The notes: generated by a model not told the origin, from the sequence alone. A stretch of DNA of 58,218 nt from Caenispirillum bisanense (GCA_945878895.1 CAMDVZ010000001.1:1-58218); one strand, 5' to 3'. Shown: positions 17,921-46,640, counted from the first letter of the stretch. Program-made: numbers and translations.

Positions 17921-18505
17921 GTGGGAACGATGATGACGATTTCCGACGACCTCCTCGACATCTATGTCGGCAGGGCTACCGGCGGCTACGGCCTGGCGAG
18001 TGTCAACCAGCTACAGCACGCTTTGCAGGCCGCGACGCTTTCGGAAAAGGCCGGAGACCCGCCGAGTCTGATCGTGGCGGCCCTGCTGCACGACGTCGGC
18101 CACATGATCCACGATCTTGGGGAGAACCCGGCATCCGCCGGAATCGACGATCGCCACGAAGACGCCGGAGCCGAATGGCTGGCGGCGTGGTTTCCGCCCG
18201 CCGTGGTGGAGCCCGTGCGTTTGCACGTGGCGGCCAAGCGGTATTTGTGCGCCGTCGAACCCTCGTATTTCGGCACGCTGTCGCGCGACTCGATCCGTAG
18301 TCTCGCGTTGCAGGGGGGACCCATGTCCACCGACGAGGTCGCCGGTTTCGACCGGCTGGAGTGGGCCGAAGGGGCGACGAAGCTCAGACGGTACGACGAA
18401 GCGGCCAAGGATCCGGCAGCGCGGACCCGCAGCTTTGAATACTTTCTGCGCTACGTCGGGACCTGCCGGGGACAAGCGCTGGTCGCTGCGGCGATACGTC
18501 CATAG
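17921..18505 (+). CDS. phosphonate-operon-associated HD-domain protein (PhnZ-like HD phosphohydrolase/oxygenase family)
   Basis: Full ORF (GTG start) with the HD motif AALLHDVGHMIHDLG plus downstream DRHEDAG and RLHVAAKRYL. It sits immediately upstream of phnCDE. Confidence 0.7.
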   Translation: MGTMMTISDDLLDIYVGRATGGYGLASVNQLQHALQAATLSEKAGDPPSLIVAALLHDVGHMIHDLGENPASAGIDDRHEDAGAEWLAAWFPPAVVEPVRLHVAAKRYLCAVEPSYFGTLSRDSIRSLALQGGPMSTDEVAGFDRLEWAEGATKLRRYDEAAKDPAARTRSFEYFLRYVGTCRGQALVAAAIRP

Positions 18506-18552
18506 GCGTGGATTCATCCAGACCCGGAAGCCAGCCACGGCTTTTCCAGTCC

Positions 18553-18592
18553 ATGTCACCAATCGGTCATGTCACTGTCTCGTATCCGTAGT
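18553..18592 (+). promoter_or_regulatory. Pho-box-like array upstream of phnC
   Basis: Four 7-bp units at exact 11-bp phasing: ATGTCAC-caat-CGGTCAT-gtca-CTGTCTC-gtat-CCGTAGT (consensus CTGTCAT). The array lies 45-84 nt upstream of the phnC ATG. Confidence 0.55.
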
Positions 18593-18636
18593 CCCGGGCC
18601 GGTAGGCTGTCGCAGGCGACAACCGGCGAGGTTTCG

Positions 18637-19434
18637 ATGCTGCGACTGGAAGGCCTTGTTAAGAATTTCGGCGACAAGCGGGCGGTCGACAACGTGTCGC
18701 TCGCGGTGCCGGCGGGCCAGCTGGTCGGGGTGATCGGGAGATCCGGTGCCGGCAAGTCGACCCTTCTTCGCATGATCAACCGGCTCGTCGACCCGACCAG
18801 CGGCCGGATCGAATACGACGGCATCGACGTGACGGCTCTGCAGCGCGCCGACCTTCGTGCCTGGCGCGCCCGCAGCGCCATGATCTTCCAGCAGTTCAAT
18901 CTGGTGGGTCGTCTCGACGTGCTGACCAACGTGCTGATGGGGCGACTCAACAAGGTCTCGACGACCCGTTCGGTGCTGAAACTCTGGTCCGACGAGGACA
19001 AGGCGCTGGCGCTGGCCGCGCTCGAGCAGTTCGGCATCGCGGGTATCGCCGCGCAGCGGGCCGAATCGCTGTCGGGCGGCCAGCAGCAACGCGTCGCCAT
19101 CGCGCGGGCGCTGGTGCAGGAGCCCGACATGATCCTAGCCGACGAGCCGGTCGCGTCGCTCGATCCACGCAACACCAGGATCGTGATGGACGCGTTGCGC
19201 CGCGTGAACAGGCATTTCGGCATCACCGTGCTGTGCAACCTGCACTCGCTCGACCTTGCCCGCGAGTATTGCGACCGGCTGGTTGGAATATCCGCCGGCC
19301 GCGTCGTGTTCGACGACGTTCCCGCGGCGCTCACCGAGCATGTCGCGCGGGAACTTTATGGCCTCGAGGCCGACGAGGTGATGGACATGCCCGCGTCGCG
19401 CGCGCCGGCAGGCGTGGTCGCGGTCGCCGCCTGA
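18637..19434 (+). CDS. phnC: phosphonate ABC transporter ATP-binding protein PhnC
   Basis: Walker [10 protein letters not shown], signature [15 protein letters not shown] and Walker B MILADEP. Followed directly by phnD and phnE. Confidence 0.92.
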
Positions 19435-19494
19435 ATTTTTCGCCGGGCGTCGCCGGACGCGCGCCCTCCCCCCTAGAAGAACCGGAGTACAAAC

Positions 19495-20430
19495 ATGATC
19501 GTCCGCCGCAATCTCATCGCCCTCGCGGCCTCCGCTGCTGCGTTCGCCGCCTCGCCGGCCCTCGCGCAGAGCTGGAAGGCCAGCCATCCGGAACTCGTGT
19601 TCGCCGTGGTTCCGGCCGAGAACGCCTCGGGCGTCACCGAGCGCTTCCAGCCGTTCGTCGAATACCTGTCGAAGGAACTCGGCGTGAAGATCACGCTGCG
19701 CATCGCCAACGACTATGCCGCCGTGATCGAGGGGCAGCGGGCGGGCAATATTCACATCGGCGCCTACGGCCCCGCAGCCTACGCGCGGGCGGCGATCACC
19801 GGGGTGAAGGTCGAGCCGTTCGTCACCACCCGCAACGCCGATGGGTCGCTGGGCTACTATTCGGTCACCTACGTGCTCGCCAAAAGCTCCTACACGAAAA
19901 TGGCCGATCTGAAGGGCAAGACGCTGGCGCTGGTCGACCCCAATTCGGCGTCGGGCAACAACGCGCCGCGCTTCTTTCTCAACCGCGACGGCTACGACGT
20001 CGACTCCTACTTCGGCAAGAACATCTACGCGGGCAGTCACGAGAACGCGATCCTCGCGCTGACCCAGGGCACCGTCGACGCCGCCGCCAACTGGTGGAAC
20101 GCGGAAGACGATTCCAATCTCACTCGCATGCTGAACAAGGGCATGCTGAAGAACGCCGACGGCTCGCCGATGAAGGCGTCGGACTTTCGCATCGTCTACA
20201 AGTCCGACCTGCTGCCCAACAGCCCCTACGCCTATCTCGCCTCGCTGCCGGCCGATCTCAAGACGGCAATCTCGAAGGCGTTCATGGAGGCGCCGACGAA
20301 GGCAAAGCCTGCATTCGACAAGCTGTCGGACGGCAAGGACAGGGAGTTCGTGAAGAGCGACGCCAAGTCGTTCGACCCGATCGTTCAGATGATCCGCTTC
20401 GTCGACGAGATGCGCAAGAAGCGGTCGTAA
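19495..20430 (+). CDS. phnD: phosphonate ABC transporter substrate-binding protein PhnD
   Basis: Signal peptide followed by VFAVVPAENASGVTERFQPFVEYLSKELGVKI...YAAVIEGQRAGNIHIGAYGPAAY, the typical PhnD pattern. Confidence 0.9.
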   Translation: MIVRRNLIALAASAAAFAASPALAQSWKASHPELVFAVVPAENASGVTERFQPFVEYLSKELGVKITLRIANDYAAVIEGQRAGNIHIGAYGPAAYARAAITGVKVEPFVTTRNADGSLGYYSVTYVLAKSSYTKMADLKGKTLALVDPNSASGNNAPRFFLNRDGYDVDSYFGKNIYAGSHENAILALTQGTVDAAANWWNAEDDSNLTRMLNKGMLKNADGSPMKASDFRIVYKSDLLPNSPYAYLASLPADLKTAISKAFMEAPTKAKPAFDKLSDGKDREFVKSDAKSFDPIVQMIRFVDEMRKKRS

Positions 20431-20507
20431 AGGACGGCGTGCCGGAGATGAGCGACAGCGCGTGCTTCGGCCTTTCGTCCATCCCGACCCGATCGTAGAT
20501 CAGTAGA

Positions 20508-21389
20508 ATGGCCATAGCGATCCAGAGGCTTCCCGACGGGCGGGAAGCCGCCATGATGCGGGCCTACGCCGAGGCCGTGGCGGCCCGGCGCGCCCGCACC
20601 GCGCTCGGACTCGTCATCCTGTTGCTGCTCGCCGCGGTATCGGCGCACGTCAGCGAAGTCGACATCGGAAAGTTCGTCGACCATATCGGCGGCGTCGGCG
20701 GCTACTTCGACCGCACGCTGCGGCTGGAATCCGGCGCCCGCGTCTGGACCGACCCCGCCGACTGGCTGTGGGGCTGGAAGCGCTGGGGACGGTTGCTCGT
20801 CGATACGCTGCTCATCGCCTATCTCGGCACGGTGCTGGGCGTCATCGCCGGCTTTTTCCTGTGTTTCCTCGCCGCCGAAAACCTCACGCGCTCCAGGCCG
20901 CTCCGCTTCGCCGTCCGCCGCTTCCTCGAGGCGTGCCGCACGGTGCCGGAGATTGTGTTTGCGCTGGTGTTCGTGGTGGCGTTCGGCCTGGGTCCGCTGC
21001 CCGGCGTCTTGGCCATCCTGATCCACACCATGGGCGCGATGGGCAAGCTGTTCGCCGAGGTGGTCGAGAACATCGACATGAACCCGGTCGAGGGCGCCAC
21101 CGCCAGCGGCGCCGGCTGGGTCCAGGTGGTGCGCTTCGCCGTGGTTCCCCAGGTGCTTCCCAATTTCGCCTCGTACAGCCTGCTCCGCTTCGAAATCAAC
21201 GTGCGCGGCGCGGCCGTGATGGGCTTCGTCGGCGCCGGCGGAATCGGCCAGGATCTCGTCGAGGCGATCCGCAAGTTCCACTATTCGGACGTCAGCGCGA
21301 TCCTTCTGATCCTCATCGCCACGGTCATGGTCATCGACCTGCTCACCGAACGTCTGCGACACCGCCTCATGGGCAGGGGAGCGGCCTGA
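20508..21389 (+). CDS. phnE: phosphonate ABC transporter permease PhnE
   Basis: Polytopic permease with a PhnE-type EAA-like loop (NIDMNPVEGATASGAG). It lies in the phnCDEE arrangement. Confidence 0.88.
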   Translation: MAIAIQRLPDGREAAMMRAYAEAVAARRARTALGLVILLLLAAVSAHVSEVDIGKFVDHIGGVGGYFDRTLRLESGARVWTDPADWLWGWKRWGRLLVDTLLIAYLGTVLGVIAGFFLCFLAAENLTRSRPLRFAVRRFLEACRTVPEIVFALVFVVAFGLGPLPGVLAILIHTMGAMGKLFAEVVENIDMNPVEGATASGAGWVQVVRFAVVPQVLPNFASYSLLRFEINVRGAAVMGFVGAGGIGQDLVEAIRKFHYSDVSAILLILIATVMVIDLLTERLRHRLMGRGAA

Positions 21390-22252
21390 TGAGGAGCCCG
21401 CTGCGCGCCGCCGCGACGAACGACCTCGCCGGAATCAGGGCGCGCCATCCCGACGTGTTCGCGCTTTCGCCGGCGCAGCGGTTGACCGGTCCCGCCATCG
21501 TGGCCATTGGCGTCGGTCTCGCGCTTTACGCATTGTGGCGGCTGGAGTTCTCGTTCGAACGTATCGGGACCGGGATCGTCCAGCTCGGTTATTTCCTGAC
21601 TCTGATGGTGCCGCCGTCCAGCGGCGGCAAGTTCGCAATGTATCTCGGTGCTCTCGCGGAGACGCTGGCGATCGCGTTCCTGGGGACGCTGGTGGCGGCC
21701 GTGCTGGCGGTGCCCGCCGCGTTGTTGGCGGCCCGGAACGTGGTCGCCAACCGGGTCGTCCACTTTCTCGCCCGCCGCGGCCTCGACTCGATCCGCGGCA
21801 TCGATACGCTGATCTGGGCGTTGATCTTCGTCAGCGCCGTCGGCCTGGGTCCCTTCGCCGGCATGCTGGCGATCGCGGCGGCCGACTTCGGTGCCTTCGG
21901 CAAGCTGTTCTCCGAGGCGATGGAGAACAGCGACCGCAAGCCGGTCGACGGCGTCCTCGCCAGTGGCGGCTCGGAGATACACGCGGTGCGGTTCGGAGTG
22001 CTGCCCCAGGTGTTTCCGGTCATGCTCAGCCAAGTGCTTTACTACATCGAATCGAACACGCGCTCGGCGACGATCATCGGCATCGTCGGTGCCGGCGGCA
22101 TCGGCCTGCACCTCGCCGAGGAAATCCGCACGCTCGAATGGAGCCGGGTGGCGTTTCTGGTGTTGATGATCCTGGTCACCGTCGCGGCCATCGACTCGGT
22201 GTCCGCTCGGGTGCGCTTCGCCATCATCGGGGATCGACGGAGGGCGGCGTGA
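21389..22252 (+). CDS. phnE: phosphonate ABC transporter permease PhnE (second copy)
   Basis: ATG 21389 overlaps the upstream TGA. Paralogous loop (NSDRKPVDGVLASGGS). It is the internal part of ORF 20768..22252. Confidence 0.88.
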   Translation: MRSPLRAAATNDLAGIRARHPDVFALSPAQRLTGPAIVAIGVGLALYALWRLEFSFERIGTGIVQLGYFLTLMVPPSSGGKFAMYLGALAETLAIAFLGTLVAAVLAVPAALLAARNVVANRVVHFLARRGLDSIRGIDTLIWALIFVSAVGLGPFAGMLAIAAADFGAFGKLFSEAMENSDRKPVDGVLASGGSEIHAVRFGVLPQVFPVMLSQVLYYIESNTRSATIIGIVGAGGIGLHLAEEIRTLEWSRVAFLVLMILVTVAAIDSVSARVRFAIIGDRRRAA

Positions 22253-22986
22253 CGTCTCGCGTGCCGGGCAGCCCCGAGGCCCCGCGCTATGCCCTGTACT
22301 ACGCGCCGCGACCGGACGAGGGGATCGCGCGAGCGGCGGGCCGCTGGCTTGGCCGCGATGCCGAAACCGGCCAGCTCTTCGGGCAACCCATCATACCCGG
22401 GGTATCGTCCGAGCAGGTCGCGAAGGCGACGGCCTCGCCCCGACGGTATGGCTTCCACGGGACCCTGAAGGCGCCGATGGCCCTGCGCGAAGACGTTTCC
22501 GAGGGGACGTTCCTCAGTGCCGTCGGGGATTTCGCCGCGTCGACCGGGAGCTTCGCCGTCCCCAGGCTCGCGTTGGTCCTTCTCGACGGCTTTCTCGCCC
22601 TGGTGCCCGCCGCAGCGTGCACGGAGCTTCATGCGCTGGCGGACCGGTGCGTGACGGAGTTCGATGCATTGCGGCTGCCCGCGTCGGACGAGGAGCTGAC
22701 TCGCCGGCGATCGGGAGGCCTGTCGCCCAGGCAAGAGGCACTCCTCGCCCGGTGGGGATATCCCCATGTCCTGGACGAGTGGCGGTTTCACCTGACGCTG
22801 ACGGGGCGCATCGACGACGACGCGACGAGCGTGGCGCTCGCGGCCACGCTCAGGCTTCACTTCGAGGCGTTCATCGGACGACCGCTGCCGGTGCGCGATG
22901 TTTGCGTCTTTCGGGAAAGCGCCCCCGGACAGCCATTCGTCGTGCTGTCTCGCTTCAGACTCGGCGGTCGCTCGACGGTGGCTTGA
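22249..22986 (+). CDS. DUF1045 / 2H-phosphoesterase-type putative phosphonate metabolism protein
   Basis: GTG 22249 overlaps the phnE stop (GTGA). Two H-x-T motifs are present (YGFHGTLKAP and RFHLTLTGR). It is the C-terminal part of ORF 21535..22986. Confidence 0.75.
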   Translation: MTSRVPGSPEAPRYALYYAPRPDEGIARAAGRWLGRDAETGQLFGQPIIPGVSSEQVAKATASPRRYGFHGTLKAPMALREDVSEGTFLSAVGDFAASTGSFAVPRLALVLLDGFLALVPAAACTELHALADRCVTEFDALRLPASDEELTRRRSGGLSPRQEALLARWGYPHVLDEWRFHLTLTGRIDDDATSVALAATLRLHFEAFIGRPLPVRDVCVFRESAPGQPFVVLSRFRLGGRSTVA

Positions 22987-23539
22987 CGAGATCGACGATC
23001 AGGCGCGCGAAGGCGCGCGCGGCGTTGTCGAGCGGTCCGTCGTTTACGATCGTCACGAGGCTGGCGTGGTCGACCGCGAACGCGGTACCGCGCTCAAGGC
23101 GTTCAGCCATCGCCGCGCGGTCCTCGCGACCGCGGTCCGCGATCCGGGCGGCCAGCATGTCCATCGGCGCCGTGATGACCACCGGACGAAGGAAAGGCGC
23201 ATCCGGCCCCAGGTGCTGGAAGTGCTCCCGCGAACCGCTGACGACGACGGCGAATCCGGCGCGACGCCAGGCGTGAATCTCGCTGCCGATGCCGTAGTCG
23301 TTGCCGTGGGCGTGCCAGTCGAAGGCGAACAGGCCACGCGCCCGCCGGACCGCGAACTCCGGTCGGGTGAGGGCGACGTGGTTCTCGCCGCCGCTGTCGG
23401 CGGGACGGGTTATGTAGCGGTGGGCGAACAGCACGGCCGGCCCGGCGCCCAGCAAAGTGCGTGCGCGCCGGAGAACGGAGTCTTTCCCCGCGCCGGACGG
23501 TCCCATGACGTAGACGAGCGGCGCCTCGATGTCAGACAA
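22955..23539 (-). CDS. phnN: ribose 1,5-bisphosphate phosphokinase PhnN
   Basis: P-loop VMGPSGAGKDSVL. The start is placed at the TTG at 23539, which overlaps the phnM stop. The upstream ATG at 23599 is possible but would overlap phnM by 68 nt. Confidence 0.8.
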   Translation of the reverse strand: MSDIEAPLVYVMGPSGAGKDSVLRRARTLLGAGPAVLFAHRYITRPADSGGENHVALTRPEFAVRRARGLFAFDWHAHGNDYGIGSEIHAWRRAGFAVVVSGSREHFQHLGPDAPFLRPVVITAPMDMLAARIADRGREDRAAMAERLERGTAFAVDHASLVTIVNDGPLDNAARAFARLIVDLVKPPSSDRRV

Positions 23540-24677
23540 CGCGCTCCCCTTCGCGCCAGACCGTGCGCACGACGGGAGCGCCGTCGACGGTGCGGACACG
23601 CACGAGATCGGCGCGCCGGTCGGCCGCGATTTCGCCGCGGTCCTGCAAGGCCACCGCGAGCGCTGGGTTGCGCGAGGCCAGCCGCACGGCGGCCGGGAGC
23701 GAGATTCCCGACCCGCCGAGCGCCAGCTTGAAAACCGCCTCCATCAGACTGGTCGGCACGTAGTCGGACGACAGGATGTCGGCCGTACCGTCGATCAGGA
23801 GCTCCGAAGCAGCGATGTTGCCGGAATGCGAGCGACCGAGGACGAGGTTCGGCGCGCCGACGAGAACCGACAGCCCGCCCGCCCGCGAAGCTTCGGCTGC
23901 CTCGCGGGTAGTGGGGAACTCGGCGATCGTCATGCCGTCGGCGACCGCCTCCTGGACGTGTGCGGTCGTGGCGTCGTCGTGGCTGGCCAGCGGCAGGGCG
24001 CGCGCCTGGGCCCGTTCGACGATTTCGCGGCGATGGGAAGCGGCGTTCTTGCGGTGCAACGCGAGCGACTTTGCAGTGAACGCCTCGAACTCCGCGTCCG
24101 TCATCGCGAACTTCTTCGTGTAGTATAGCCGCTGTTGCGCCGGGTCGACGAACTGGCGCTGGCCCGGCGTATGGTCGTTGATGGAAATCAGGCCCACGAG
24201 CGGAAGATCGATCCACCGGTCCACCGCCTCGACCGCGTCGTCGGCCGAAATTTCGCAGCGCAGGTGCAGGCGGTGTTCCGCGCGAGTCATGCCGCTCCGG
24301 CCGACGGCGATGACCGCCTCGACCATCCGTTCGCGATCGCGAACCCGGTCGGAGTTTCCGCGCACGTCGCCGAGCGCCAGCGAGTCGAACACAGTCGTGA
24401 TGCCGGCGGCGCCGATCTGGGTGTCGTGGGCCATCACCGCGGGAATGCTGGGCCACGCCACGCCCGGTCGCGGCGAGAAGTGCTTCTCCATGTTGTCGGT
24501 GTGCAACTCGACGAGACCGGGCAGGAGGTAGTCGCCGTCGAGATCGATCGCTCCGCCGACGTTGCTGCGCCCGCGCGAGACTTCCACGATCTGGTCGTCC
24601 CGCACAACGACGGTGCCGTCGAACACCTCGTCCGGCGTCACGACATGGGCGTTGGTGAAGATCATGTCGGGGCTCAT
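23532..24677 (-). CDS. phnM: alpha-D-ribose 1-methylphosphonate 5-triphosphate diphosphatase PhnM
   Basis: ATG 24675-24677 (MSPDMIFTNAHVV) overlaps the phnL stop. Amidohydrolase pattern GLVELHTDN is present. It is the internal part of ORF 23532..25259. Confidence 0.88.
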   Translation of the reverse strand: MSPDMIFTNAHVVTPDEVFDGTVVVRDDQIVEVSRGRSNVGGAIDLDGDYLLPGLVELHTDNMEKHFSPRPGVAWPSIPAVMAHDTQIGAAGITTVFDSLALGDVRGNSDRVRDRERMVEAVIAVGRSGMTRAEHRLHLRCEISADDAVEAVDRWIDLPLVGLISINDHTPGQRQFVDPAQQRLYYTKKFAMTDAEFEAFTAKSLALHRKNAASHRREIVERAQARALPLASHDDATTAHVQEAVADGMTIAEFPTTREAAEASRAGGLSVLVGAPNLVLGRSHSGNIAASELLIDGTADILSSDYVPTSLMEAVFKLALGGSGISLPAAVRLASRNPALAVALQDRGEIAADRRADLVRVRTVDGAPVVRTVWREGERVV

Positions 24678-25372
24678 TCGTGGACTCCGGGAAGGGCGAC
24701 GCGATGGACGCGGGTCGCGAGGGCATCGCGCATGTTGGCGTCGTGGAAGATGGCCACGATCGCGGCGCCGGCGTCCCGTCGCTCGCGGACGAGGTCGACG
24801 ACGGCGTCGCGGTTCTCGGCATCGAGCGACGCGGTCGGCTCGTCGAGCAGCAGCACGGGATAGTCGACGCCGAGGGACCGGGCGATGTTCACCCGTTGCT
24901 GTTCGCCGCCGGAAAACGTCGCCGGCGGCAACGCCCACAGGCGTTCCGGAATTCGCAGGCGGTCCAGCAGCGACTTCGCGCGTGCGTCGGCTTCCGAACG
25001 GGAACGCCCCGCCCGGATCATGGGCTCGGCCACCACGTCGAGAGTGGCGACGCGCGGGATCACCCTGAGAAACTGGCTGACGAACCCCATGGTCCGGCGA
25101 CGAACGTCCAGCACTATCCGGGGTTCGGCGTCCACCAGTTCCGTCCAGCCATCGTCGTGTCGAACGCGGATCGATCCGGCTTGCACCCGATAGTTCCCGT
25201 ATAGAGACCGCAGCAGCGTGCTCTTTCCCGCGCCGGACGGTCCGACCAGGGCGAGGCACTCGCCGGTCTCGACCGAGAGCCCGACGTCGCGGAGAACTGG
25301 CAGCGTCAGTCCTCCCTGGGCGTGGACGGTGAACGACTTGCGGAGTCCGGTGGCGGCGAGAGCGATGGACAT
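24674..25372 (-). CDS. phnL: C-P lyase system ATP-binding protein PhnL
   Basis: Contains [24 protein letters not shown] and LLLDEPT. It occupies the position between phnK and phnM. Confidence 0.9.
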   Translation of the reverse strand: MSIALAATGLRKSFTVHAQGGLTLPVLRDVGLSVETGECLALVGPSGAGKSTLLRSLYGNYRVQAGSIRVRHDDGWTELVDAEPRIVLDVRRRTMGFVSQFLRVIPRVATLDVVAEPMIRAGRSRSEADARAKSLLDRLRIPERLWALPPATFSGGEQQRVNIARSLGVDYPVLLLDEPTASLDAENRDAVVDLVRERRDAGAAIVAIFHDANMRDALATRVHRVALPGVHE

Positions 25373-25376
25373 GGCG

Positions 25377-27034: not shown

Positions 27035-27037
27035 GGC

Positions 27038-28135: not shown

Positions 28136-28136
28136 G

Positions 28137-29215: not shown

Positions 29216-29426
29216 GACCGGCGCACCATCGAAGCGCCGCGTTACAATTCGGCGCAGGATTCTATAAGAATTTGTGACGGCGACATGCTTTCGGTGGACC
29301 GCCGCCGGGGCGGTCGGGTTCGCGCTCCGGCGCGGCGCGAGCCACCGGCCGGCCGCCGCGAAACCGATGGCGGGATCGTCCGCGACCGCCCCGCCGCAGG
29401 CACCCCGAAAGGGCGGTGTTCCGAGC

Positions 29427-33766: not shown

Positions 33767-33795
33767 CCGTCACGGAACTGTCTTTGGTCTGAAGC
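33767..33795 (+). promoter_or_regulatory. Pho-box-like array for the plus-strand ABC/gpdQ/PMH operon
   Basis: CCGTCAC-ggaa-CTGTCTT-tggt-CTGAAGC at 11-bp phasing, 36-64 nt upstream of the ATG at 33831. Confidence 0.35.
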
Positions 33796-35607: not shown

Positions 35608-35617
35608 GAGACTGGCG

Positions 35618-36940: not shown

Positions 36941-37022
36941 TTCCGATCGCTCGCTTCCGTCCGGGCGCCGTCGCGTCCGGACGGGGGCGCACACCACCAC
37001 GCTCCCGTTTCGAGGCACGCCG

Positions 37023-37871: not shown

Positions 37872-37878
37872 CAAGACG

Positions 37879-39459
37879 ATGACCCGCAAGAAAAACGTAC
37901 TCCTGATCGTCGTCGACCAGTGGCGCGGCGATCTGCTGCCGATCCTCGGCACGCCCCATCTGCGCACGCCCAATCTCGATCGGCTGTGCGCCGAGGGCGT
38001 GACGTTCCGGAACCATTTCACCCAGGGCGCTCCCTGCGGTCCGGCGCGGGCGAGCTTGCTCACCGGCCAGTACGTCATGAACCATCGCGCGGTGCAGAAC
38101 ACCGTGCCGCTCGACGCCCGGTTCACCAACATCGCCCTCGAGCTGCGCCAGGGCGGTTTCGATCCGGCGCTGGTCGGCTACACCACGACCACGCCCGATC
38201 CGCGCACGACGTCGCCGGACGATCCGCGCTTCCTGGTGCTCGGCAACCTCATGGACGGCTTCCGCCCCGTCGGCGCGTTCGAGCCCTATCGCGACGCCTA
38301 TTTCGGGTGGGTCGCCAGCCAGGGCCACGAACTGCCGGCCAATCGCGACGAGATATGGCTGCCCGAGGGTGCGGCGTCCGAAGGCAGCGGCGCCACCGCG
38401 CGCGCGTCGCGGATACCCAAGCAGCTGTCCGACACCGCCTGGTTCACCGAGCGCGCGCTGAGCTACCTGCGGGGTCGCGACGACAAACCCTGGTTCCTCC
38501 ACCTCGGCTACTACCGGCCCCATCCGCCGTTCATCGCGCCCGCGCCCTACAACGCGATGTACGATGCCGCTGACATGCCCTCGCCGGTCCGCGCCGCCAG
38601 CCCCGCGGAAGAGGCCAGCCAGAACGCGCTGCTACGCCACTACGTCGAGAACGTCAGGCAATCGAGCTTCTTCCAGGACGGCAAGAAGCTGGCCAGCGAG
38701 ATGACCGACGCCGAGGTGCGCCAGACCCGCGCCACCTACTACGGCCTGATGAGCGAGATCGACGAGCATCTCGGCCGGGTGTTCGATTTTCTTCAGGCGA
38801 CCGGCCAGTGGGACGACACGCTGATCGTCTTCACCTGTGACCACGGCGAGCAGCTCGGCGACCACCATCTGCTGGGCAAGATCGGCTACTTTGACGAATC
38901 CTTCCGGATTCCCATGATCGTGCGCGATCCGCGCGCGGAGGCGGGGGCAACGCGCGGCAGCGTCGTCGACCGTTTCTCCGAAACGATCGACATGATGCCC
39001 ACCGTCCTCGAGTGGCTGGGCCTGCCGGTGCCGCGCCAGTGCGACGGCCGTTCGCTGCTTCCATTCTGCCACGGCGCGCCGCCGGCGGATTGGCGCACCG
39101 AGGTCCATTTCGAATTCGACTTCCGCGACGTCCACTATTCAAAGCCCGAAACGGCGCTCGGCATACCGATGGACAAGGCCAATCTCGCCGTGGTGCGCGA
39201 CCACGACTACAAGTACGTGCACTTCGCCGCCCTGCCGCCGCTGTTCTTCGACCTGCGGGCCGATCCGGGCCAGTTCGAGAACCGCGCCGAAGATCCTGCC
39301 TATGCGACCCTCGTGCGCCGCTACGCGCAGAAGATGCTCGACTGGCGACTCGGTTTCGCCGATCGCACCCTGACCGGCTATCGCGCCTCGCCCGACGGAC
39401 TGCAGGTCCGCGTCGGACCCGACGCGATGCCGGCTGCCATCCGCCCATCGTCCCGCTGA
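37879..39459 (+). CDS. alkaline-phosphatase-superfamily sulfatase-fold hydrolase, phosphonate monoester hydrolase (PMH/PehA)-like
   Basis: ATG 37879 (MTRKKNVLLIVVDQWRGD). Contains the formylglycine motif C-G-P-A-R (APCGPARASLLTG), DHGEQLGDHHLLGK and YKYVHFAALPPLFFDL. Only 7 nt separate it from the GpdQ-like gene. Confidence 0.7.
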   Translation: MTRKKNVLLIVVDQWRGDLLPILGTPHLRTPNLDRLCAEGVTFRNHFTQGAPCGPARASLLTGQYVMNHRAVQNTVPLDARFTNIALELRQGGFDPALVGYTTTTPDPRTTSPDDPRFLVLGNLMDGFRPVGAFEPYRDAYFGWVASQGHELPANRDEIWLPEGAASEGSGATARASRIPKQLSDTAWFTERALSYLRGRDDKPWFLHLGYYRPHPPFIAPAPYNAMYDAADMPSPVRAASPAEEASQNALLRHYVENVRQSSFFQDGKKLASEMTDAEVRQTRATYYGLMSEIDEHLGRVFDFLQATGQWDDTLIVFTCDHGEQLGDHHLLGKIGYFDESFRIPMIVRDPRAEAGATRGSVVDRFSETIDMMPTVLEWLGLPVPRQCDGRSLLPFCHGAPPADWRTEVHFEFDFRDVHYSKPETALGIPMDKANLAVVRDHDYKYVHFAALPPLFFDLRADPGQFENRAEDPAYATLVRRYAQKMLDWRLGFADRTLTGYRASPDGLQVRVGPDAMPAAIRPSSR

Positions 39460-39473
39460 ACGGAGAGAATTCG

Positions 39474-41117
39474 ATGTCCACGAACACCACCCGACGCACG
39501 CTCGTCGGCGGCCTTGGCTCGGTCGCGGCGGCGACCGCCTTGCCGCGCTTCGCCATCGGCCAGGCCGATGCGCGCCCCTCGATCACGATCGCGGTGCAAC
39601 AGAACACCAACACGAACACGCTGGAGCCACTCCGCGAGCAGTCGAACGTGGGCGCCCGCATGCTCTACAGCTTCATCGAGCCTCTGATCGACGCCAAGCA
39701 TCAGGGCGATCTCGGCGCGCAGCCGGGCCTGGCGACATCGTGGCGGCGGATCGACGACAAGACCGTCGAGCTCAAGCTGCGCCAAGGCGTGAAGTTCCAC
39801 AACGGCGACACGATGACCGCCGAGGACGTCGCGTACAGTTTCGGACCCGAGCGCATGTTCGGTACGCCGGGCGCTGCCGGCGCGGCGCCGGGCGGAACGA
39901 TGTTTTCGACGGCGCCCGGCGCGGCCGGACGCGAAACGCCGCCGGAGGTACGCGCCGTGGCGCGCCGCCTGTGGCCGAAGCTCGAGCGCGTGGAGATCGT
40001 CGACAAGGAAACCGTTCGCTTCGTCAACGGCACGCCCGACGTCACGCTGGAGGGTCGCATCGGTCGCTACGGGTCCGAAATCATCAGCCGCCGCGGGTTC
40101 ATGGAGTCGTCGGACTGGCTCGCCTGAGCCCGCCGCCCGGTCGGCACGGGTCCCTACCGGATCGCCGATTTCAAGCCGGACACGCATCTGGTCCTCGAGG
40201 CGTTCGACGAGTACTGGGGCGGCCGCCCGCCGATCAGGCAGATCCGCTTCGTCGTCGTTCCGGAAGTTTCCAGCCGCGTCAACGGCTTGCTCTCGGGCCA
40301 GTACGACTTCGCCTGCGACATCCCGCCCGACCAGATCGCCGGCATCGAACGCAACCCGCGCTACCACGTCGTGGGCGGGACGATCACGAACCACCGTCTG
40401 ATCTGCTTCGACCAGAAGCACCCCCAGCTCGTCGATCCCCGCATCCGTCGCGCCATGGCGCTCGGCATCGACCGCAAGCTGATCGTCGACACGCTGTGGA
40501 GCGGCCGTACCCGGGTGCCGCACGGACTGCAGTGGGAGTACTACGACAAGATGTTCCTGTCGGACTGGCCGCAGCCCGCCTTCGATCCGGCGCGCGCCAG
40601 GGCTCTGATCAAGGAAGCGGGCTACAAGGGCGAGCCGATCCCGTTCCGGGTGCTGAACAACTACTACACGAACCAGGTTTCGACCGCCCAGATCCTCGCC
40701 GACATGTGGGGGCAGATCGGCCTCAACGTGAAGCTGGAGATGAAGGAAAACTGGCAACAGATTTTCGAACGGAACAGTCCGCGGGCGATCCGCGACTGGT
40801 CGAATTCGGCACCGTTCGGCGATCCCGTCAGTTCCATCGTCAACCAGCACGGGCCTGCCGGACAGCAACAGCAGGTCGGCGAATGGACCAACGCGGAGTT
40901 CAACCGTCTGTCCGAGGAGCTCGAGGGCAGCGTCGATTACGAACGCCGCCGCGTCGTCTTCCGGCGCATGCTGGAGATCGCCGAAGTCGAGGATCCGGCC
41001 TACACGGTGCTGCACCAGAACGTGATCTTCTACGGCAAGCGCCGGGACATCCAGTGGACGCCGTCCAGCCTGCAGTACATGGATTTCCGGGGCCGCAACT
41101 TCCGCGTTGGCGTCTGA
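39474..41117 (+). pseudogene. family-5 (DppA/OppA-type) ABC substrate-binding protein interrupted by one in-frame TGA
   Basis: ORF 39012..40127 (real ATG 39474 after GGAGAG) and ORF 40287..41117 are in the same frame. The stretch after the TGA at 40125-40127 still reads ARRPVGTGPYRIADFKPDTHLVLEAFDEYWGGRPP, a conserved SBP5 core. Confidence 0.8.
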
Positions 41118-41122
41118 GCGTG

Positions 41123-42160
41123 ATGGTGGCTCTCCCCGACGTGGAACCAGCCACGGACCGGCGCTTGGTCGATATCCGCGGGCTGACCGTGGATTTCGAC
41201 ATGGGCGCGAGGGTGTCCCGCGTCCTGCACGGCATCGACCTTTCGATCGACAAGGGCGAGGTCGTCGGCCTTGTCGGCGAAAGCGGTTGTGGCAAGAGCG
41301 TGACGTGGCTCGCGGTTCTCGGCCTGCTGGGTCCCCGGGCCCATGTCGGCGGGATCGCGACCCTCGGCGGCGAGCCGCTGCTCGGGATCGGGGACGAGCG
41401 CCTGTCGCGCGTGCGCGGCGGGCGGATCGCGATGATTTTCCAGGATCCGACCGCGTGCCTCAACCCGGTCAAACGCATAGGCGCGCAGGTCTGCGAGGCG
41501 TTGCATCTGCATCGCGGCATCGTTGGCGAGCGGGCCCGCGCCGAGGCGCGGCGGCTGCTCGACCGCGTCGGCATCGCCGCCGCCGCGCAGCGCATGAACG
41601 AGTACCCACACCAGATGTCGGGCGGCATGAACCAGCGCGTGATGATCGCGACGGCGCTCGCTGGCGAACCCGACCTGCTGGTCGCCGACGAACCGACCAC
41701 GGCGCTCGACGCGACCATCCAGGCGCAGATACTCGATCTGCTGCGCGAGGTGCGACGCGATACCGGCATGGCGATGGTGCTGATCTCGCACGATCTCGGC
41801 GTGGTCGCCGAGAATTGCGACCGGGTCGCCGTCATGTATTGCGGCCGCGTCGTGGAGCAGGCACCCGCGGAGCGTCTGTTCGAGAAGCCTTCCCACCCCT
41901 ATACGCGCGGCCTCCTCGCGGCTTTGCCCGACCTGGCCGGACCCACGCGGCGTCTCGAGTCTATTCCCGGCAACGTGCCCGAACCCTGGAACCTGCCGAC
42001 GGGTTGTGCCTTCGCGCCACGTTGCGGCGCGTGTCGGGACTTCTGCACCGGCACGGTTCCACCCTACCGCGCGGTCGCCGCGGGGCATCTGGTCGCCTGC
42101 GCGCGCGCCGGATTTCTCCATCACGCCCCGTCGGCGCAGTCCTCCGCGGTGGCGCGATGA
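41123..42160 (+). CDS. ABC transporter ATP-binding protein (DppD/OppD type)
   Basis: Contains GESGCGKSV, MSGGMNQRVMIATAL, LVADEPTTALD and the C-terminal oligopeptide-type extension PTGCAFAPRC. Confidence 0.88.
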   Translation: MVALPDVEPATDRRLVDIRGLTVDFDMGARVSRVLHGIDLSIDKGEVVGLVGESGCGKSVTWLAVLGLLGPRAHVGGIATLGGEPLLGIGDERLSRVRGGRIAMIFQDPTACLNPVKRIGAQVCEALHLHRGIVGERARAEARRLLDRVGIAAAAQRMNEYPHQMSGGMNQRVMIATALAGEPDLLVADEPTTALDATIQAQILDLLREVRRDTGMAMVLISHDLGVVAENCDRVAVMYCGRVVEQAPAERLFEKPSHPYTRGLLAALPDLAGPTRRLESIPGNVPEPWNLPTGCAFAPRCGACRDFCTGTVPPYRAVAAGHLVACARAGFLHHAPSAQSSAVAR

Positions 42161-43143
42161 CTCCCTTGCTCGAGGTTCGCGGCCTCGCCCGGCACTACAG
42201 GGTCCGCCGGCCAGGTGGCCTGTGGGGGCGCACCGCGGTGCTCAAGGCGGTGGACGGCGTGTCGTTCGCCATCGGACGAGGCCGCACGTTGGGGCTCGTG
42301 GGCGAATCCGGCTGCGGCAAGTCGACCGCGGCGCGCCTGGCCCTTGGCCTGCTGCCGGCGACGTCGGGCGACGTTCTGTTCGATGGCCAACCGCTGTCCA
42401 CGCGTCAGGACGCGGCGTGGCGGGCGTCCCGGCGCAAACTGCAGCTGGTGTTCCAGGACACGCTCGGCGCGCTCGACCGGCGACTTCCGATCGGTCTTCA
42501 GATCATGGAGCCGCTCGACATCCATGGCATCGGCACGCGTGCCGAACGGCTGGAGAAGACGAAGGACCTCTTCACCGCCGTCGGGCTGCTGCCCCACATG
42601 TTCGACCGCTATCCGCACGAACTGTCGGGCGGGCAGCGCCAACGCGTCGTGCTTGCCCGCGCGCTCGTCGCCCAGCCCGCGCTCATCGCCTGCGACGAGC
42701 CCATCTCGGCGCTCGACGTGTCGATCCAGGCGCAGGTCATCAATCTCCTGCACGACCTGCGCGAGCAGTTCGGGGTCGCCTACCTGTTCATCAGCCACGA
42801 CCTGCGCGTGGTGCGGCAGGTCAGCGACGAGGTCGCGGTGATGTATCTCGGGCGGATCGTCGAACAGGGCACCCCCGATCGCCTTTTCCGTCAACCCGAA
42901 CATCCCTACACGCGCGCGCTTGTGTCGGCGATACCGGTGGCGACGCCGAACCGGGCACGCCAGCGGATCATTCTCAAGGGGGACCCGCCCAGTCCCGTCG
43001 ACGTGCCCGCCGGCTGCGCGTTCCATCCGCGTTGCGCCCTCGCCGGGCCGCGCTGCAGGGTCGAGACGCCGGCATTGCGTTCGATGCCGGGCGGACATCG
43101 CGTGGCCTGCCATCTGGCCGGCGAAACCGCCGCGGCAGCGTAG
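42157..43143 (+). CDS. ABC transporter ATP-binding protein (DppF/OppF type)
   Basis: ATGA overlap with the upstream gene. Contains [35 protein letters not shown] and PAGCAFHPRC. Confidence 0.88.
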   Translation: MTPLLEVRGLARHYRVRRPGGLWGRTAVLKAVDGVSFAIGRGRTLGLVGESGCGKSTAARLALGLLPATSGDVLFDGQPLSTRQDAAWRASRRKLQLVFQDTLGALDRRLPIGLQIMEPLDIHGIGTRAERLEKTKDLFTAVGLLPHMFDRYPHELSGGQRQRVVLARALVAQPALIACDEPISALDVSIQAQVINLLHDLREQFGVAYLFISHDLRVVRQVSDEVAVMYLGRIVEQGTPDRLFRQPEHPYTRALVSAIPVATPNRARQRIILKGDPPSPVDVPAGCAFHPRCALAGPRCRVETPALRSMPGGHRVACHLAGETAAAA

Positions 43144-43155
43144 GAGCGGCTCGTC

Positions 43156-44094
43156 ATGATGCGTTACTTGGCCATTCGGGGCCTGCGGGCGATCCTCACG
43201 ATCGCGTTCGTGGTCACCTTCGCCTTCTTCATCCTGCGCCTGTCGGGAGATCCGGCGCTGCTGATCCTGTCGCCGGAAGCACCGCCGGAAGCGGTCGAGG
43301 CGTTTCGCAAATCGTGGGGCCTCGACCGTCCGCTGTGGGAGCAGTACCTGCGCTACTTCGTGGCGATTTTTGAAGGCAATCTTGGCCGTTCGATGCGCGA
43401 CGGGCGGCCGGCGCTGGATCTGGTCATGGATCGCGTGCCCGCGACGCTCATGCTCACGTTGCCGGCCTTCGCGCTCAAGCTGTTGATCGGCGTGCCTGCC
43501 GGCATATTCGCGGCGCTCAGGCGCAATTCCTTCGTCGACCGTCTGGTGATCGTCTGCTCGGTGGCCGGCCACTCCGTTCCGAGCTTCGTGCTCGGGCTGG
43601 TCCTCGTTCTGCTCTTCGCCGTCAATCTCAACTGGCTGCCCAGCGGCGGCGCCGACAACTGGAAGCACGCCATTCTGCCGGTCGTGACCCTGGGAACCGC
43701 CGGCGCCGCGATCATCGCCCGTTTCACGCGGTCGGCGATGCTGGAGGTGCTGGGTCAGCCCTATGTTCGCGCAGCGCTTGCCAAAGGCGTGCCGTGGCCC
43801 AGCGTGGTGTGGCGCCACGCGTTGCCCAACGCGGCGATCCCGACGGTGACGATCATCGGTTTCATGGTCGGCACGCTGATCGCCGGCGCCGTCGTGGTCG
43901 AGAGCGTGTTCTCCTGGCCCGGCGTCGGCAGGATGCTCGTGGTCGGCGTCGCCAATCGCGATCTCGCGGTCGTGCAGTGCGTTCTTCTGCTGGTGGCCAT
44001 GTGCATGGTCGCGTCGAACTTCACCGTCGATCTCCTGTACGGCTGGATTGACCCGCGGCTGCGCGCGTGGGCGACCGGCGCGTCCGGCCATTGA
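43156..44094 (+). CDS. ABC transporter permease (DppB type)
   Basis: Full ORF. The N-terminus MMRYLAIRGLRAILTIAFVVTFAFFILRLSGDPA is typical of DppB/OppB. Confidence 0.88.
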   Translation: MMRYLAIRGLRAILTIAFVVTFAFFILRLSGDPALLILSPEAPPEAVEAFRKSWGLDRPLWEQYLRYFVAIFEGNLGRSMRDGRPALDLVMDRVPATLMLTLPAFALKLLIGVPAGIFAALRRNSFVDRLVIVCSVAGHSVPSFVLGLVLVLLFAVNLNWLPSGGADNWKHAILPVVTLGTAGAAIIARFTRSAMLEVLGQPYVRAALAKGVPWPSVVWRHALPNAAIPTVTIIGFMVGTLIAGAVVVESVFSWPGVGRMLVVGVANRDLAVVQCVLLLVAMCMVASNFTVDLLYGWIDPRLRAWATGASGH

Positions 44095-44101
44095 GGATTC
44101 C

Positions 44102-45007
44102 ATGACCGCCATCGACCCTGCGACGTCCGAAGTCGCCATCGGCGCCCCCCGGCGGCCGGTCCGGGCACGGTGGTCGCGCCTGATCGAGGCGTGGCCGCCG
44201 CTGGTGATGCTCGCGATCGCCTGGATCGTCCTGACCCTGATCGTGGCGGTGGGGGCGGACGCGATCGCGCCCTACGACTATTCACGCATGGACCTGCGCG
44301 CGCGCCTGGCGCCGCCGGCCTTCGCGGGCGGCGTCTGGACGCATTTTCTCGGCACCGACGAACTCGGACGCGACGTCTTCAGCCGCCTCGTCTATTCCGT
44401 TCGCATCAGCCTGCTGATCGCGTTCGCGGCGACCATCATGGGCGCCGTCGTGGGCACGCTGCTCGGTCTGCTGGCGGCGCACCTGCGCGGTTTCTTCGAG
44501 GAAGCCGTGCTGATGCTGATCGACTTCCAGGCGTCGATGCCGTTCATGATCATCGCGTTGGCGGTGCTGGCGTTTCTCGGCAATTCGCTGCCGCTTTTCA
44601 TCGGACTGATGGGGCTGCATGGCTGGGAGCGCTACGCGCGAATCTCCCGCGGGCTCGCCATCTCCGCCAGCGAGCAGAGCTATGCGGGCGCAATCCGGCA
44701 GCTCGGCGCCACGCCCTGGCGGGTGTACGGACGCCATATCCTGCCCAACATCGCCAGCACGCTGATCGTGAACATCACGCTCAGCTTCCCGGAGATCATC
44801 CTGCTTGAATCGGGCCTGTCGTTTCTCGGCTTGGGCGTGCAGCCGCCGCTCACGAGCCTCGGCAACATGGTCGGCTACGGTCGCGAGTACATCGAGCTCG
44901 CATCGTGGATCCTGCTGTCGCCGGCGGCGGTGATCGTGCTGACCACGCTTTCGATCAGCCTGATCGGGGACTGGCTGCGCGATCGGCTCGATCCAACGCT
45001 GCGGTAA
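44102..45007 (+). CDS. ABC transporter permease (DppC type)
   Basis: ATG 44102. Contains the FLGTDELGRDVFSRL motif typical of DppC/OppC. Confidence 0.88.
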   Translation: MTAIDPATSEVAIGAPRRPVRARWSRLIEAWPPLVMLAIAWIVLTLIVAVGADAIAPYDYSRMDLRARLAPPAFAGGVWTHFLGTDELGRDVFSRLVYSVRISLLIAFAATIMGAVVGTLLGLLAAHLRGFFEEAVLMLIDFQASMPFMIIALAVLAFLGNSLPLFIGLMGLHGWERYARISRGLAISASEQSYAGAIRQLGATPWRVYGRHILPNIASTLIVNITLSFPEIILLESGLSFLGLGVQPPLTSLGNMVGYGREYIELASWILLSPAAVIVLTTLSISLIGDWLRDRLDPTLR

Positions 45008-45095
45008 CGCCGACGGGATACTCGCCCCGCGCAACGGACCGATCGCCAGGCGCGTCGGCGCATTCACACGACACGACCGGACTGGATCATTCGCG

Positions 45096-46640
45096 ATGAA
45101 GTTTACCCGCCGTACCGCGCTCGTTTCCGCAGCCGTCCTGGCCGTCGGCGATCGGGCACTCGCCCAGACCGATGGGCGCCCCGTGCTCACTATCGGTGTC
45201 GCCCAGGTACCGCCAACCCTGGAACCGGCACGGGAATTGAGCAACGTCGGCACGCGGGTGACGTACTCGGTGTTCGACACGTTGATCAGACGAGATTTCC
45301 TCTCATCGCCCGACGGTGGCGGATCGAAGCTGGTGCCGGGGCTCGCCACGGAATGGACCCGGGTCGGACCGAAGGAACTGGTGCTGAGGCTCCGCCGGGG
45401 CGTAAAATTCCACAATGGCGACGAGTTCACCGCCGACGACGTCGTCTACACCTTCACCTCGCAGCGCATGTTCGGCGCCGATGCGCTACTGCCCGAGGCG
45501 CGGTCGTACTTCGCGACCCTGGAGGGCGTCGATGCCCTCGATCCTCATACGGTCCGGTTCCGGACCAGGGCGCCCGACGTGCTGCTGGAGCACAGGCTCG
45601 CGTCGTGGTGCGGCTGGATCGTGAACAAGCGCGCCTACGAATCCCTCGGCATCGACGGATTCGGCCGGGCTCCGGTCGGCACCGGACCTTACCGGGCGCG
45701 CGAGATTCTGCCGGACCAGCGCATCGTGCTCGACGCGTTCGACGATTACTGGATGGGCAAGCCGGCGGCGCGCCGCGTCGTGTTCCGCGAAATCCCGGAG
45801 CTGGCGTCCCGCGTCGCGGCGCTGCAGGCCGGCGACGTCGACATGATCACCAACATCCCGCCCGACCAGGTGCCGCAATTGCGCAAGCGCGAGGGTATCG
45901 ACGTGCGTTCGGTCGTGCTCGCGAACGTGCATGTCCTGACGTTCGACGAGCGCGGTGCCGGCATGGCCGACAAGCGCGTACGTCGGGCGCTGGGGTTGGC
46001 GATCGACCGCAGACTGCTGGTCGAGACACTGTGGGACAACGCGGCGTCGGTTCCGCCGGGCCACAACTACCCCGAATACGGCGACATGTTTCTCGCCGGA
46101 CGGCAGCTTCGGTACGCGCCCGACGAGGCACGCCGGCTGTTGAAGGAGGCCGGCTACGGTGGCGAGAAGATCGTCTACCGGACCATGCCGAACTACTACA
46201 CCAACGCGTTAAAGGCCGCGCAGGTGATCGTGGAGATGTGGAAGGCGGTCGGGATCAACGCCGAGCTTCAAATCGTCGAAAACTTCACGCAGATGCGCGC
46301 CGCGGGCGCGCAGGTCGGCAACAATTCCAACTCCACGCGCCTGCCGGATCCGCTCGGCGCGCTGTGGATTTCGTGGGGACCCGGTAGCTTCTTCCAGACC
46401 GGCAAGACCTGGACCTCGACGCAGGCCTTCAACGACGCGGGGCGCGCGCTCGAGGCCGAAACGGATCCCGCCAGGCGCAAGGCACTCTTCACGGCGATGC
46501 TTGACGCCTGGGAGGACGAGGCTCCCGGCACGGTTCTCTACCAGCCGGCCGAGTTCTACGCCGCGCGCAAGCGTGTGAAGTGGCGTCCCTACACGTTCTA
46601 TTTCATGGATCTCCAGCCTGACAATCTCAGGTTCGAATAG
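45096..46640 (+). CDS. family-5 ABC substrate-binding protein (intact paralogue at operon end)
   Basis: Signal peptide, APVGTGPYRAREI and FDDYWMGKPA. It is a paralogue of the interrupted gene at 39474. Confidence 0.85.
   Translation: MKFTRRTALVSAAVLAVGDRALAQTDGRPVLTIGVAQVPPTLEPARELSNVGTRVTYSVFDTLIRRDFLSSPDGGGSKLVPGLATEWTRVGPKELVLRLRRGVKFHNGDEFTADDVVYTFTSQRMFGADALLPEARSYFATLEGVDALDPHTVRFRTRAPDVLLEHRLASWCGWIVNKRAYESLGIDGFGRAPVGTGPYRAREILPDQRIVLDAFDDYWMGKPAARRVVFREIPELASRVAALQAGDVDMITNIPPDQVPQLRKREGIDVRSVVLANVHVLTFDERGAGMADKRVRRALGLAIDRRLLVETLWDNAASVPPGHNYPEYGDMFLAGRQLRYAPDEARRLLKEAGYGGEKIVYRTMPNYYTNALKAAQVIVEMWKAVGINAELQIVENFTQMRAAGAQVGNNSNSTRLPDPLGALWISWGPGSFFQTGKTWTSTQAFNDAGRALEAETDPARRKALFTAMLDAWEDEAPGTVLYQPAEFYAARKRVKWRPYTFYFMDLQPDNLRFE

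Follow-up and report, generated by a model that had tools for sequence, protein, structure and literature searches.

We analysed a 58,218-nucleotide stretch of DNA from Caenispirillum bisanense (GCA_945878895.1 CAMDVZ010000001.1:1-58218; hereafter the window), which carries between positions 17921 and 46640 a block of organophosphorus genes comprising a carbon-phosphorus (C-P) lyase, several ATP-binding cassette (ABC) importers and two esterases, the GpdQ-like diesterase and PehA. An earlier note, made from the sequence alone, had read this block as a single pathway in which phosphonate or phosphate esters are imported, stripped of the ester group and passed as alkylphosphonates to C-P lyase. 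Because the G+C content of the window is high (63-70%), genes were called by combining family searches at Pfam and NCBIfam cut-offs with third-position GC, and all the units listed in the note were recovered with the same coordinates and strands, including intergenic gaps of exactly 82, 7 and 14 nucleotides (nt). Our results support, with moderate confidence, a different organization: the block would be a mosaic island of parallel phosphorus-scavenging cassettes that bind a compound, import it and cleave it in the cytoplasm, under partial Pho control.

All genes of the block are intact with the exception of SBP5a, described below, and many neighbouring pairs show start-stop overlaps (ATGA or GTGA style) or are separated by only a few nt. 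Signal peptides are lacking in the two esterases, which are both encoded directly behind importers, while all 5 binding proteins present signal-like N-termini.

PehA is followed by an Acc-type importer

The pehA gene (37879-39459, + strand) encodes a formylglycine enzyme of the phosphonate monoester hydrolase (PMH)/phosphodiesterase type. The protein scored 910.8 bits against the NCBIfam equivalog NF045661, whose cut-off is 900, and matched BcPMH and RlPMH in the PDB (2w8s, 2vqr) with an E-value of about 1e-228. Its formylglycine motif, C-x-P-x-R, corresponds to C53-G-P-A-R57, and residues D13, Y101, T103, H215, D321, H322 and K334 are invariant in an alignment of 26 homologs.

Downstream of pehA, and on the same strand, we found the genes for an AccA-like substrate-binding protein (SBP) that is the conserved partner of pehA (SBP5a, 39474-41117), an AccB/DppD-like ATPase (41123-42160), an AccC/DppF-like ATPase (42157-43143), an AccD/DppB-like permease (43156-44094), an AccE/DppC-like permease (44102-45007) and a second, intact AccA-like binding protein (SBP5b, 45096-46640). 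This importer had previously been labelled dpp-like, a designation that had to be replaced. In PDB searches SBP5b matched AccA with an E-value of 8e-116 and SBP5a, with its in-frame TGA read as Trp, with 2.5e-84; the chains that follow, which are not AccA and include DppA, reached about 1e-26 to 1e-29. The gene order is also that of accABCDE of a Ti plasmid, whose ATPases and permeases share 44-49% identity with those encoded here.

AccA imports sugar phosphodiesters that are cleaved in the cytoplasm by AccF, with AccG as the putative phosphatase of the operon, and contacts the phosphate through Asn54, Tyr375, Tyr376 and Ser419 (PMC4526662). SBP5a, SBP5b and all the PehA-linked orthologs that we examined keep these four residues as well as the hinge Asn284. 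In the pocket that accommodates the pyranose, W423, E434 and E510 are replaced in both window proteins, and Y145 and W178 are kept in SBP5b only. None of the genes for AccF (a GDPD enzyme), AccG (an IMPase) or the AccR repressor was found in the window (compare locus L096, below), and by analogy with the acc operon PehA would occupy the position of AccF.

SBP5a contains an in-frame TGA codon (40125-40127) at a site where 5 of 6 orthologs present Trp and the remaining one Phe, and the rest of the gene is intact. Given the Trp of the orthologs and the integrity of the remaining sequence, the codon is most simply explained by a recent nonsense mutation of TGG to TGA. A separate ENA assembly (L003), possibly derived from the same sample, shares this TGA. 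Recoding of this codon was also considered, and no evidence for it was found.

The PehA-importer unit recurs in other genomes

To place these genes in a wider context, PehA relatives were scanned in one genome per GTDB species, and 80 loci were kept with 10-kb flanks. In about 46 of these 80 genomes, pehA has next to it orthologs of the SBP5a-ATPase-ATPase-permease-permease set (55-75% identity), which lie downstream of it in most Alphaproteobacteria and upstream in Betaproteobacteria and Ferrovibrio. This recurrence indicates that PehA forms a unit with the importer behind it and not with GpdQ, with which the earlier note had grouped it; GpdQ belongs instead to the upstream CUT1 importer pair, which stands alone with it in close relatives.

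The note had proposed surveying whether the co-localisation of gpdQ, PMH and phn genes recurs elsewhere. For pehA it does, with C-P lyase genes, HD-domain oxygenase-like (HD) genes or both, in four loci: a co-directional phnJ-K-L-M-HD-SBP5-ABC-pehA string in a Burkholderiaceae metagenome-assembled genome (MAG; L052), phnM-phnC-D-E-HD-SBP5-ABC-pehA in an Alcaligenaceae MAG (L070), phnD-E-C upstream of the pehA unit in L047, and Metallophos-His_Phos-pehA-SBP5a-ABC-SBP5b-NPP-HD in L017. Genes of the GpdQ-like type adjoin the pehA unit in L047, L050, L056 and L065, and a Metallophos gene does so in L017. The co-localisation thus recurs, in a minority of loci. In addition, a HAD phosphatase gene directly follows pehA in 9 betaproteobacterial loci and a His_Phos phosphatase accompanies it in L017; the presence of a phosphatase beside pehA in about 10 loci implies that the product is a phosphomonoester and, therefore, that the substrate is a diester.

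A role for PehA in sulfur scavenging was contemplated on account of SfnB and LLM neighbours in Rhizobium and Pseudoroseomonas, and was dropped since such neighbours do not recur in the 80 loci.

Proteins of the AccA family were also found beside other esterases, namely a GDPD diesterase in pTi and pAt2 and a metallophosphoesterase in Pseudoroseomonas, where the binding protein is a 72% ortholog of SBP5b, and His_Phos or IMPase phosphatases lie near those loci. Three of these regions (L095:9001-11459, L097:8035-14950 and L096:7164-14981) illustrate that the phosphoesterases accompanying AccA-family SBPs (Metallophos, GDPD, PehA) have unrelated folds. The phosphatases paired with such sets vary as well, being of the His_Phos, IMPase or HAD type.

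A divergent CUT1 importer pair ends in a GpdQ-like diesterase

Upstream of pehA lie two divergent CUT1-family importers. Importer A (33622-29427, - strand) has the order ATPase-permease-permease-SBP and consists of a UgpC/MalK-like ATPase (32474-33622), permease 1 (31545-32477), permease 2 (30712-31548) and SBP_A, a CUT1-family binding protein distant from UgpB (29427-30692). Importer B (33831-36940, + strand) consists of permease 1 (33831-34781), permease 2 (34771-35607) and the UgpB-like binding protein SBP_B (35618-36940). It has no ATPase gene, either here or in relatives, so it probably depends on that of importer A, which would then be the sole one for both. SBP_B finds its best PDB matches in UgpB; neither binding protein reaches the 411-bit cut-off of the UgpB equivalog NF008211, with 176 bits for SBP_B and 62 for SBP_A.

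The last gene of this group encodes a GpdQ-like protein, predicted to be a cytoplasmic metallophosphodiesterase (37023-37871, + strand). Its best PDB match is Enterobacter aerogenes GpdQ (2dxl/3d03, E-value 4e-46), compared to 4e-23 for Rv0805, and the seven metal ligands (D8, H10, D50, N80, H156, H195 and H197) are all conserved in an alignment that spans residues 1-220 of 282 and leaves the C-terminal part unaligned. The protein falls below the equivalog cut-offs of both SpdA and CpdA.

Importer A facing importer B plus GpdQ is found in an identical divergent layout in three relatives (L087, L091 and L092), in each case without phn genes and without pehA. Protein identities to the window are 63-91%, and 87-91% for both binding proteins. 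More distant SBP_A orthologs belong to HAD-ATPase-permease-permease-SBP-Metallophos operons in Ferrovibrio, Hylemonella and Serratia, and in Ralstonia and Ruegeria GpdQ-like genes are also the last gene of importer operons. In Serratia sp. DD3 (L090, 1-12078) an operon of this kind, HAD-ATPase-permease-permease-SBP_A-like-Metallophos, is divergent from phnFGHIJKLM, constituting another importer-plus-esterase cassette that adjoins C-P lyase, in this case in a gammaproteobacterium.

The phn genes include the whole phnG-N set of C-P lyase

On the other side of importer A, the phn genes form two convergent units. The first one, on the + strand, starts with an HD-domain phosphonate oxygenase-like gene of the PhnZ/TmpB family (17921-18505), which scores 196 bits on TIGR03276, just below the cut-off of 214.6, and whose next matches are TmpB and PhnZ1. 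It continues with the phosphonate ABC ATPase gene phnC (18637-19434), the phosphonate-binding protein gene phnD (19495-20430), two phnE permease genes (20508-21389 and 21389-22252) and a DUF1045/TIGR03223 gene (22249-22986) for a putative phosphonate metabolism protein (264.5 bits against a cut-off of 248.95). The second unit, on the - strand, contains phnG (28733-29215), phnH (28137-28736), phnI (27038-28135), phnJ (26159-27034), phnK (25377-26162), phnL (24674-25372), phnM (23532-24677) and phnN (22955-23599). Each protein exceeds its Pfam or NCBIfam cut-off and PhnJ retains the C-terminal Cys cluster motif, in agreement with the PhnG-N set, PhnN included, that had been described. The cluster contains no phnP, for which the DUF1045/TIGR03223 protein may stand in. 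The 211 nt that precede phnG include an AT-rich stretch, TTCTATAAGAATTTGTGAC (29262-29280), and hold neither phnF nor a Pho box.

Pho-box-like sites lie in two promoters of the block and before part of the pehA operons

Pho boxes were searched as CTGTCAT-N4-CTGTCAT with at most 3 mismatches. The whole window yielded three matches only, a number that equals the chance expectation, but all of them are on the correct strand and located in two promoters: a site of three 11-bp-spaced repeats before phnC (18553-18581, + strand) and a site 47 nt before importer B (33767-33784, + strand). A match level such as that of these two promoters is reached by 0.4% of random 210-nt windows. Furthermore, in two related genomes, where the surrounding intergenic sequence has diverged, the box of importer B is conserved in the form of three clean tandem repeats. 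Before the HD gene, phnG, importer A, gpdQ and SBP5b, the matches do not exceed background. Hence, the earlier statement that the block lies behind Pho-box-like sites applies to phnC and importer B, and not to phnG, the HD gene or importer A.

The same search in the other genomes revealed a box, with up to 3 mismatches and within 250 nt upstream, at 7 of the 46 starts of Acc-linked pehA operons, against 0.36 expected (Poisson P about 1e-7). Most of these boxes are 44-73 nt from the start, and many of the other operons have matches with 4-5 mismatches that share the same first half-site. Scans for terminator and promoter consensus sequences between 28500 and 40000 gave no more sites than shuffled sequence, and a hairpin in the gap between SBP_B and gpdQ was not significant (z-score -1.67).

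The block is carried by a tRNA-Gln-associated island

An exact 20-bp direct repeat, TGGCTGGGGCGCCAGGATTC, identical to the 3' end of the tRNA-Gln gene, is present in exactly two copies in the window (7162-7181 and 47703-47722), where the chance expectation for such a match is 0. These repeats bracket an island of 40.5 kb extending from 7162 to 47722, which corroborates the proposal that the block is island-borne. The copy at 7162-7181, an exact 20-bp match, is the att repeat of the distal border, and the second one is formed by the 3' 20 nt of the tRNA-Gln(ttg) gene itself (47703-47777, - strand), the integration site. What remains of the integrase is an N-terminal remnant with a DUF6538 domain just inside the distal repeat (7262-7648, + strand), interrupted by an IS21-type element (7569-9982, + strand; istA 7569-9098, istB 9095-9982). 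The sequence TGTTACGACTC is confined to just inside both island ends (7250-7273 and 47632-47642), and its copies are possible candidates for integrase-binding sites. The GC shift of the island is weak, a search for near-identical plasmid-borne DNA found none, and an Rfam scan of the whole window matched the tRNA alone.

The island also carries, between 10566 and 17758, an AcrB-type resistance-nodulation-division (RND) pump, a membrane-fusion protein and an OmpR/EnvZ-like two-component system, none of which appears to be phosphorus-related. The two-component system (15351-17758) was evaluated as a possible PhoBR; it scored best as OmpR/EnvZ-like, under the PhoB and PhoR cut-offs, and lies beside the RND pump, so it was excluded from the block. 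Between SBP5b and the tRNA there is about 1 kb of lower GC (46641-47702) containing an orphan open reading frame (47003-47407, - strand) without any family match. Beyond the island, the region 47846-58217 encodes a flavin reductase, a CHAD-domain protein, CobW, a Na/Ca exchanger, GlpK, an SDR protein, GlpD and a MalK/UgpC-like ABC system; through glpK and glpD, glycerol-phosphate metabolism thus adjoins the integration site. GlpK is 79-81% identical to proteins of uncultured Alphaproteobacteria, Vineibacter terrae and Reyranellaceae. We take the host to be an uncultured alphaproteobacterium of Reyranellaceae/Vineibacter-like affinity, living in soil or water.

A proposed mosaic of parallel scavenging cassettes

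Two esterases without signal peptides placed directly behind importers, together with Pho-box-like sites at two promoters, bear out the proposal that this is a phosphorus-acquisition cluster. The logic common to its parts would be the capture of an organophosphorus compound by a periplasmic SBP, its import in intact form by the ABC importer and the release of usable phosphorus by a cytoplasmic enzyme. In a first module, PhnCDEE and PhnGHIJKLMN, with the DUF1045 protein and the HD oxygenase, would process free phosphonates. The second and third ones, the divergent CUT1 importers with one ATPase and the GpdQ-type diesterase, would handle glycerophosphodiester-like esters and may represent an older unit of the bacterial family of the host. 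In the fourth, PehA would act on compounds delivered by the Acc-type importer, whose SBPs keep the phosphate contacts of AccA and would hold the organic moiety in a pocket unlike that of AccA. Transcription of phnCDE and of the gene string from 33831 to 46640, at the least, is probably activated by PhoB. The esterases would yield phosphomonoesters to be finished by phosphatases encoded elsewhere or, if the substrate were a phosphonate monoester, free phosphonates for the neighbouring C-P lyase or HD oxygenase. Gene identities, island borders, sequence motifs and neighbourhood conservation were observed here; regulation, substrates and the way the modules are coupled are inferred.

Several observations weigh against this mosaic of cassettes. 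No phosphomonoesterase is encoded in the block, and, with 5-7 mismatches, the best Pho matches for the HD gene, for phnG-N and for the importer A operon do not rise above background. With SBP5a broken here, module 4 may be impaired or decaying. Moreover, 22 loci of the Reyranella clade (L006-L036), which contain the PehA sequences closest to ours, have no importer and no Pho box. In them pcaHG, encoding protocatechuate 3,4-dioxygenase, begins about 22 nt behind pehA (e.g., L010:11555-12256), and in about 10 pcaB follows as well, a context that suggests a role in aromatic ester catabolism; PehA would therefore not have a uniform role across its family. Finally, the comparison covers 80 of at least 317 PehA loci, and several of the informative ones are MAG contigs.

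For the PehA unit in particular, we tentatively contemplate a more specific function, possible although it is not the one we would bet on: PehA and the Acc-type importer may constitute a widespread, Pho-regulated system for the uptake and de-esterification of natural phosphonate monoesters, with the phosphonate handed to C-P lyase or to a PhnZ-like HD oxygenase. This hand-off is suggested by the fused operons of the Burkholderiales MAGs (phnJKLM-HD-SBP-ABC-pehA), and candidate substrates would be phosphonoglycan fragments or phosphonolipid head groups, such as glyceryl- or glycosyl-aminoethylphosphonate.

Extending this route to the entire block, so that phosphonate monoesters are imported, de-esterified by both GpdQ and PehA and delivered as alkylphosphonates to C-P lyase in one linear pathway, seems to us rather unlikely. 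It is favoured by the orthology of PehA to enzymes named for phosphonate monoester hydrolysis, by the co-directional fusion of the pehA-importer unit to C-P lyase and HD genes (L052, L070) and its position beside HD in L017, and by the Serratia importer-Metallophos operon divergent from phnF-M; such a sequence of steps has also been postulated for marine phosphonate esters (PMC5649143). Nevertheless, the GpdQ module occurs without phn in close relatives, phn linkage affects about 4-5 of the 80 pehA loci, the phnG promoter lacks a Pho box, the binding proteins resemble a phosphodiester binder and the HAD or His_Phos phosphatases adjoining about 10 pehA loci point to a phosphomonoester product. 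AccA homology and these phosphatase neighbours indicate phosphodiesters, which bypass C-P lyase, at least as strongly as phosphonate monoesters, and the single pathway of the earlier note is only partly supported. The pehA unit is fused to phn or HD genes in four other lineages, and the passage from ester to C-P lyase is a plausible branch, not a demonstrated purpose of the whole block.

It is quite improbable that the Acc-like importer and PehA serve, as in Agrobacterium, to use an opine-like or plant- or microbe-derived sugar phosphodiester as carbon source or signal instead of scavenging phosphorus. The strong homology to AccA, the accABCDE-like gene order and the LacI- or DeoR-type regulators near some homologs agree with such a use. 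However, AccR, AccF and AccG are absent here, the residues of the pyranose pocket are replaced, the starts of pehA operons are enriched in Pho boxes and the unit of the window has phn genes beside it and a Pho-box promoter upstream. An adjacency devoid of functional meaning, in which unrelated cassettes accreted and the pehA module is decaying or devoted to sulfate or aryl ester catabolism, could be read from the SBP5a nonsense codon, the IS21 insertion and dead integrase, the pehA-pcaHG context of Reyranella and the sulfur-scavenging genes within 10 kb of pehA in Rhizobium and Pseudoroseomonas, but is very doubtful in view of the non-recurrence of those sulfur-type neighbours, the integrity and tight spacing of all other block genes, the recurrence of phosphorus-related neighbours in several classes and the enrichment in Pho boxes.

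Implications for the physiological role of PehA

Catalytic promiscuity has been studied with PMH/PehA as a model enzyme, and the literature that we searched assigns it no physiological role. The placement of PehA in a conserved operon with an SBP of the phosphate-ester type, an operon frequently preceded by Pho boxes and in some cases fused to genes for phosphonate cleavage, provides a lead on such a role which is accessible to experiment in cultured strains. Carriers of pehA with the Acc-like operon that are in culture include R. johnstonii 3841 (pRL9), Stella sp. ATCC 35155, Brucella tritici LMG 18957 and Falsiroseomonas stagni DSM 19981. In this regard, the comparative result on the genomic partners of PehA is a more valuable lead than the cluster of the window itself. 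The combination of AccA-family importers with cytoplasmic phosphoesterases of unrelated folds also points to a class of organophosphate-ester uptake broader than the Agrobacterium opine case. If the phosphonate-monoester reading were true, it would supply the long-missing physiological role of PMH and the first dedicated phosphonate-ester transporter. For phosphorus cycling, our result points to a possible way for esterified phosphonates to reach C-P lyase, a process linked to aerobic methane release.

Parts of the idea of an ester-to-C-P-lyase module have precedents. Sosa et al. (2017) already proposed that esters are hydrolysed ahead of C-P lyase, with a mention of PEH (PMC5649143), and a 2026 paper noted in passing pmh genes beside phnWX and phnWYA (PMC13608971). 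Among the papers searched, none deals with PehA and an Acc-type importer, with its Pho boxes or with its fusion to HD and C-P lyase genes.

Comparison with known systems

The closest characterized relatives of PehA are PehA/BcPMH of Burkholderia caryophylli and RlPMH (pRL90232) of Rhizobium leguminosarum, of which the window protein is an ortholog, with 62.6% identity to the RlPMH gene by tblastn and conservation of the formylglycine motif and catalytic residues. In R. johnstonii 3841, pehA also has the same Acc-like importer downstream (pRL9 locus). The difference is that pehA is here inside a phn/ugp-like island, 7 nt behind gpdQ.

With the accR-accABCDEFG operon of Agrobacterium Ti plasmids, the PehA unit shares a cluster-C binding protein that keeps the phosphate-contact residues, the SBP-ATPase-ATPase-permease-permease order and, presumably, the import of a phosphodiester followed by its cytoplasmic cleavage. 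It differs in that PehA, a formylglycine esterase of the alkaline-phosphatase superfamily, replaces the GDPD enzyme AccF, in the lack of AccG phosphatase and AccR, in the replaced pyranose-pocket residues and in a control that is apparently Pho and not opine.

The CUT1 pair resembles E. coli ugpBAECQ, the Pho-regulon system for glycerophosphodiester and glycerol-3-phosphate uptake with the cytoplasmic diesterase UgpQ, in its UgpB-like SBP, its UgpC-like ATPase, the Pho-box-like site heading the operon and the terminal diesterase, predicted here to be cytoplasmic. In contrast to ugp, there are two divergent importers with one common ATPase, the diesterase is of the GpdQ-type Metallophos family and not GDPD, and neither SBP comes close to the cut-off of the UgpB equivalog (176 and 62 against 411 bits). 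That diesterase has its closest relative in the structural database in E. aerogenes GpdQ, whose seven metal ligands it keeps in an alignment that spans residues 1-220.

Finally, all of phnCDE and phnGHIJKLMN of the E. coli phnCDEFGHIJKLMNOP operon are present here over their family cut-offs. Unlike in E. coli, they are arranged in two convergent units without phnF, phnO or phnP, with the addition of the DUF1045 and HD oxygenase-like genes and with phnG following a CUT1 importer.

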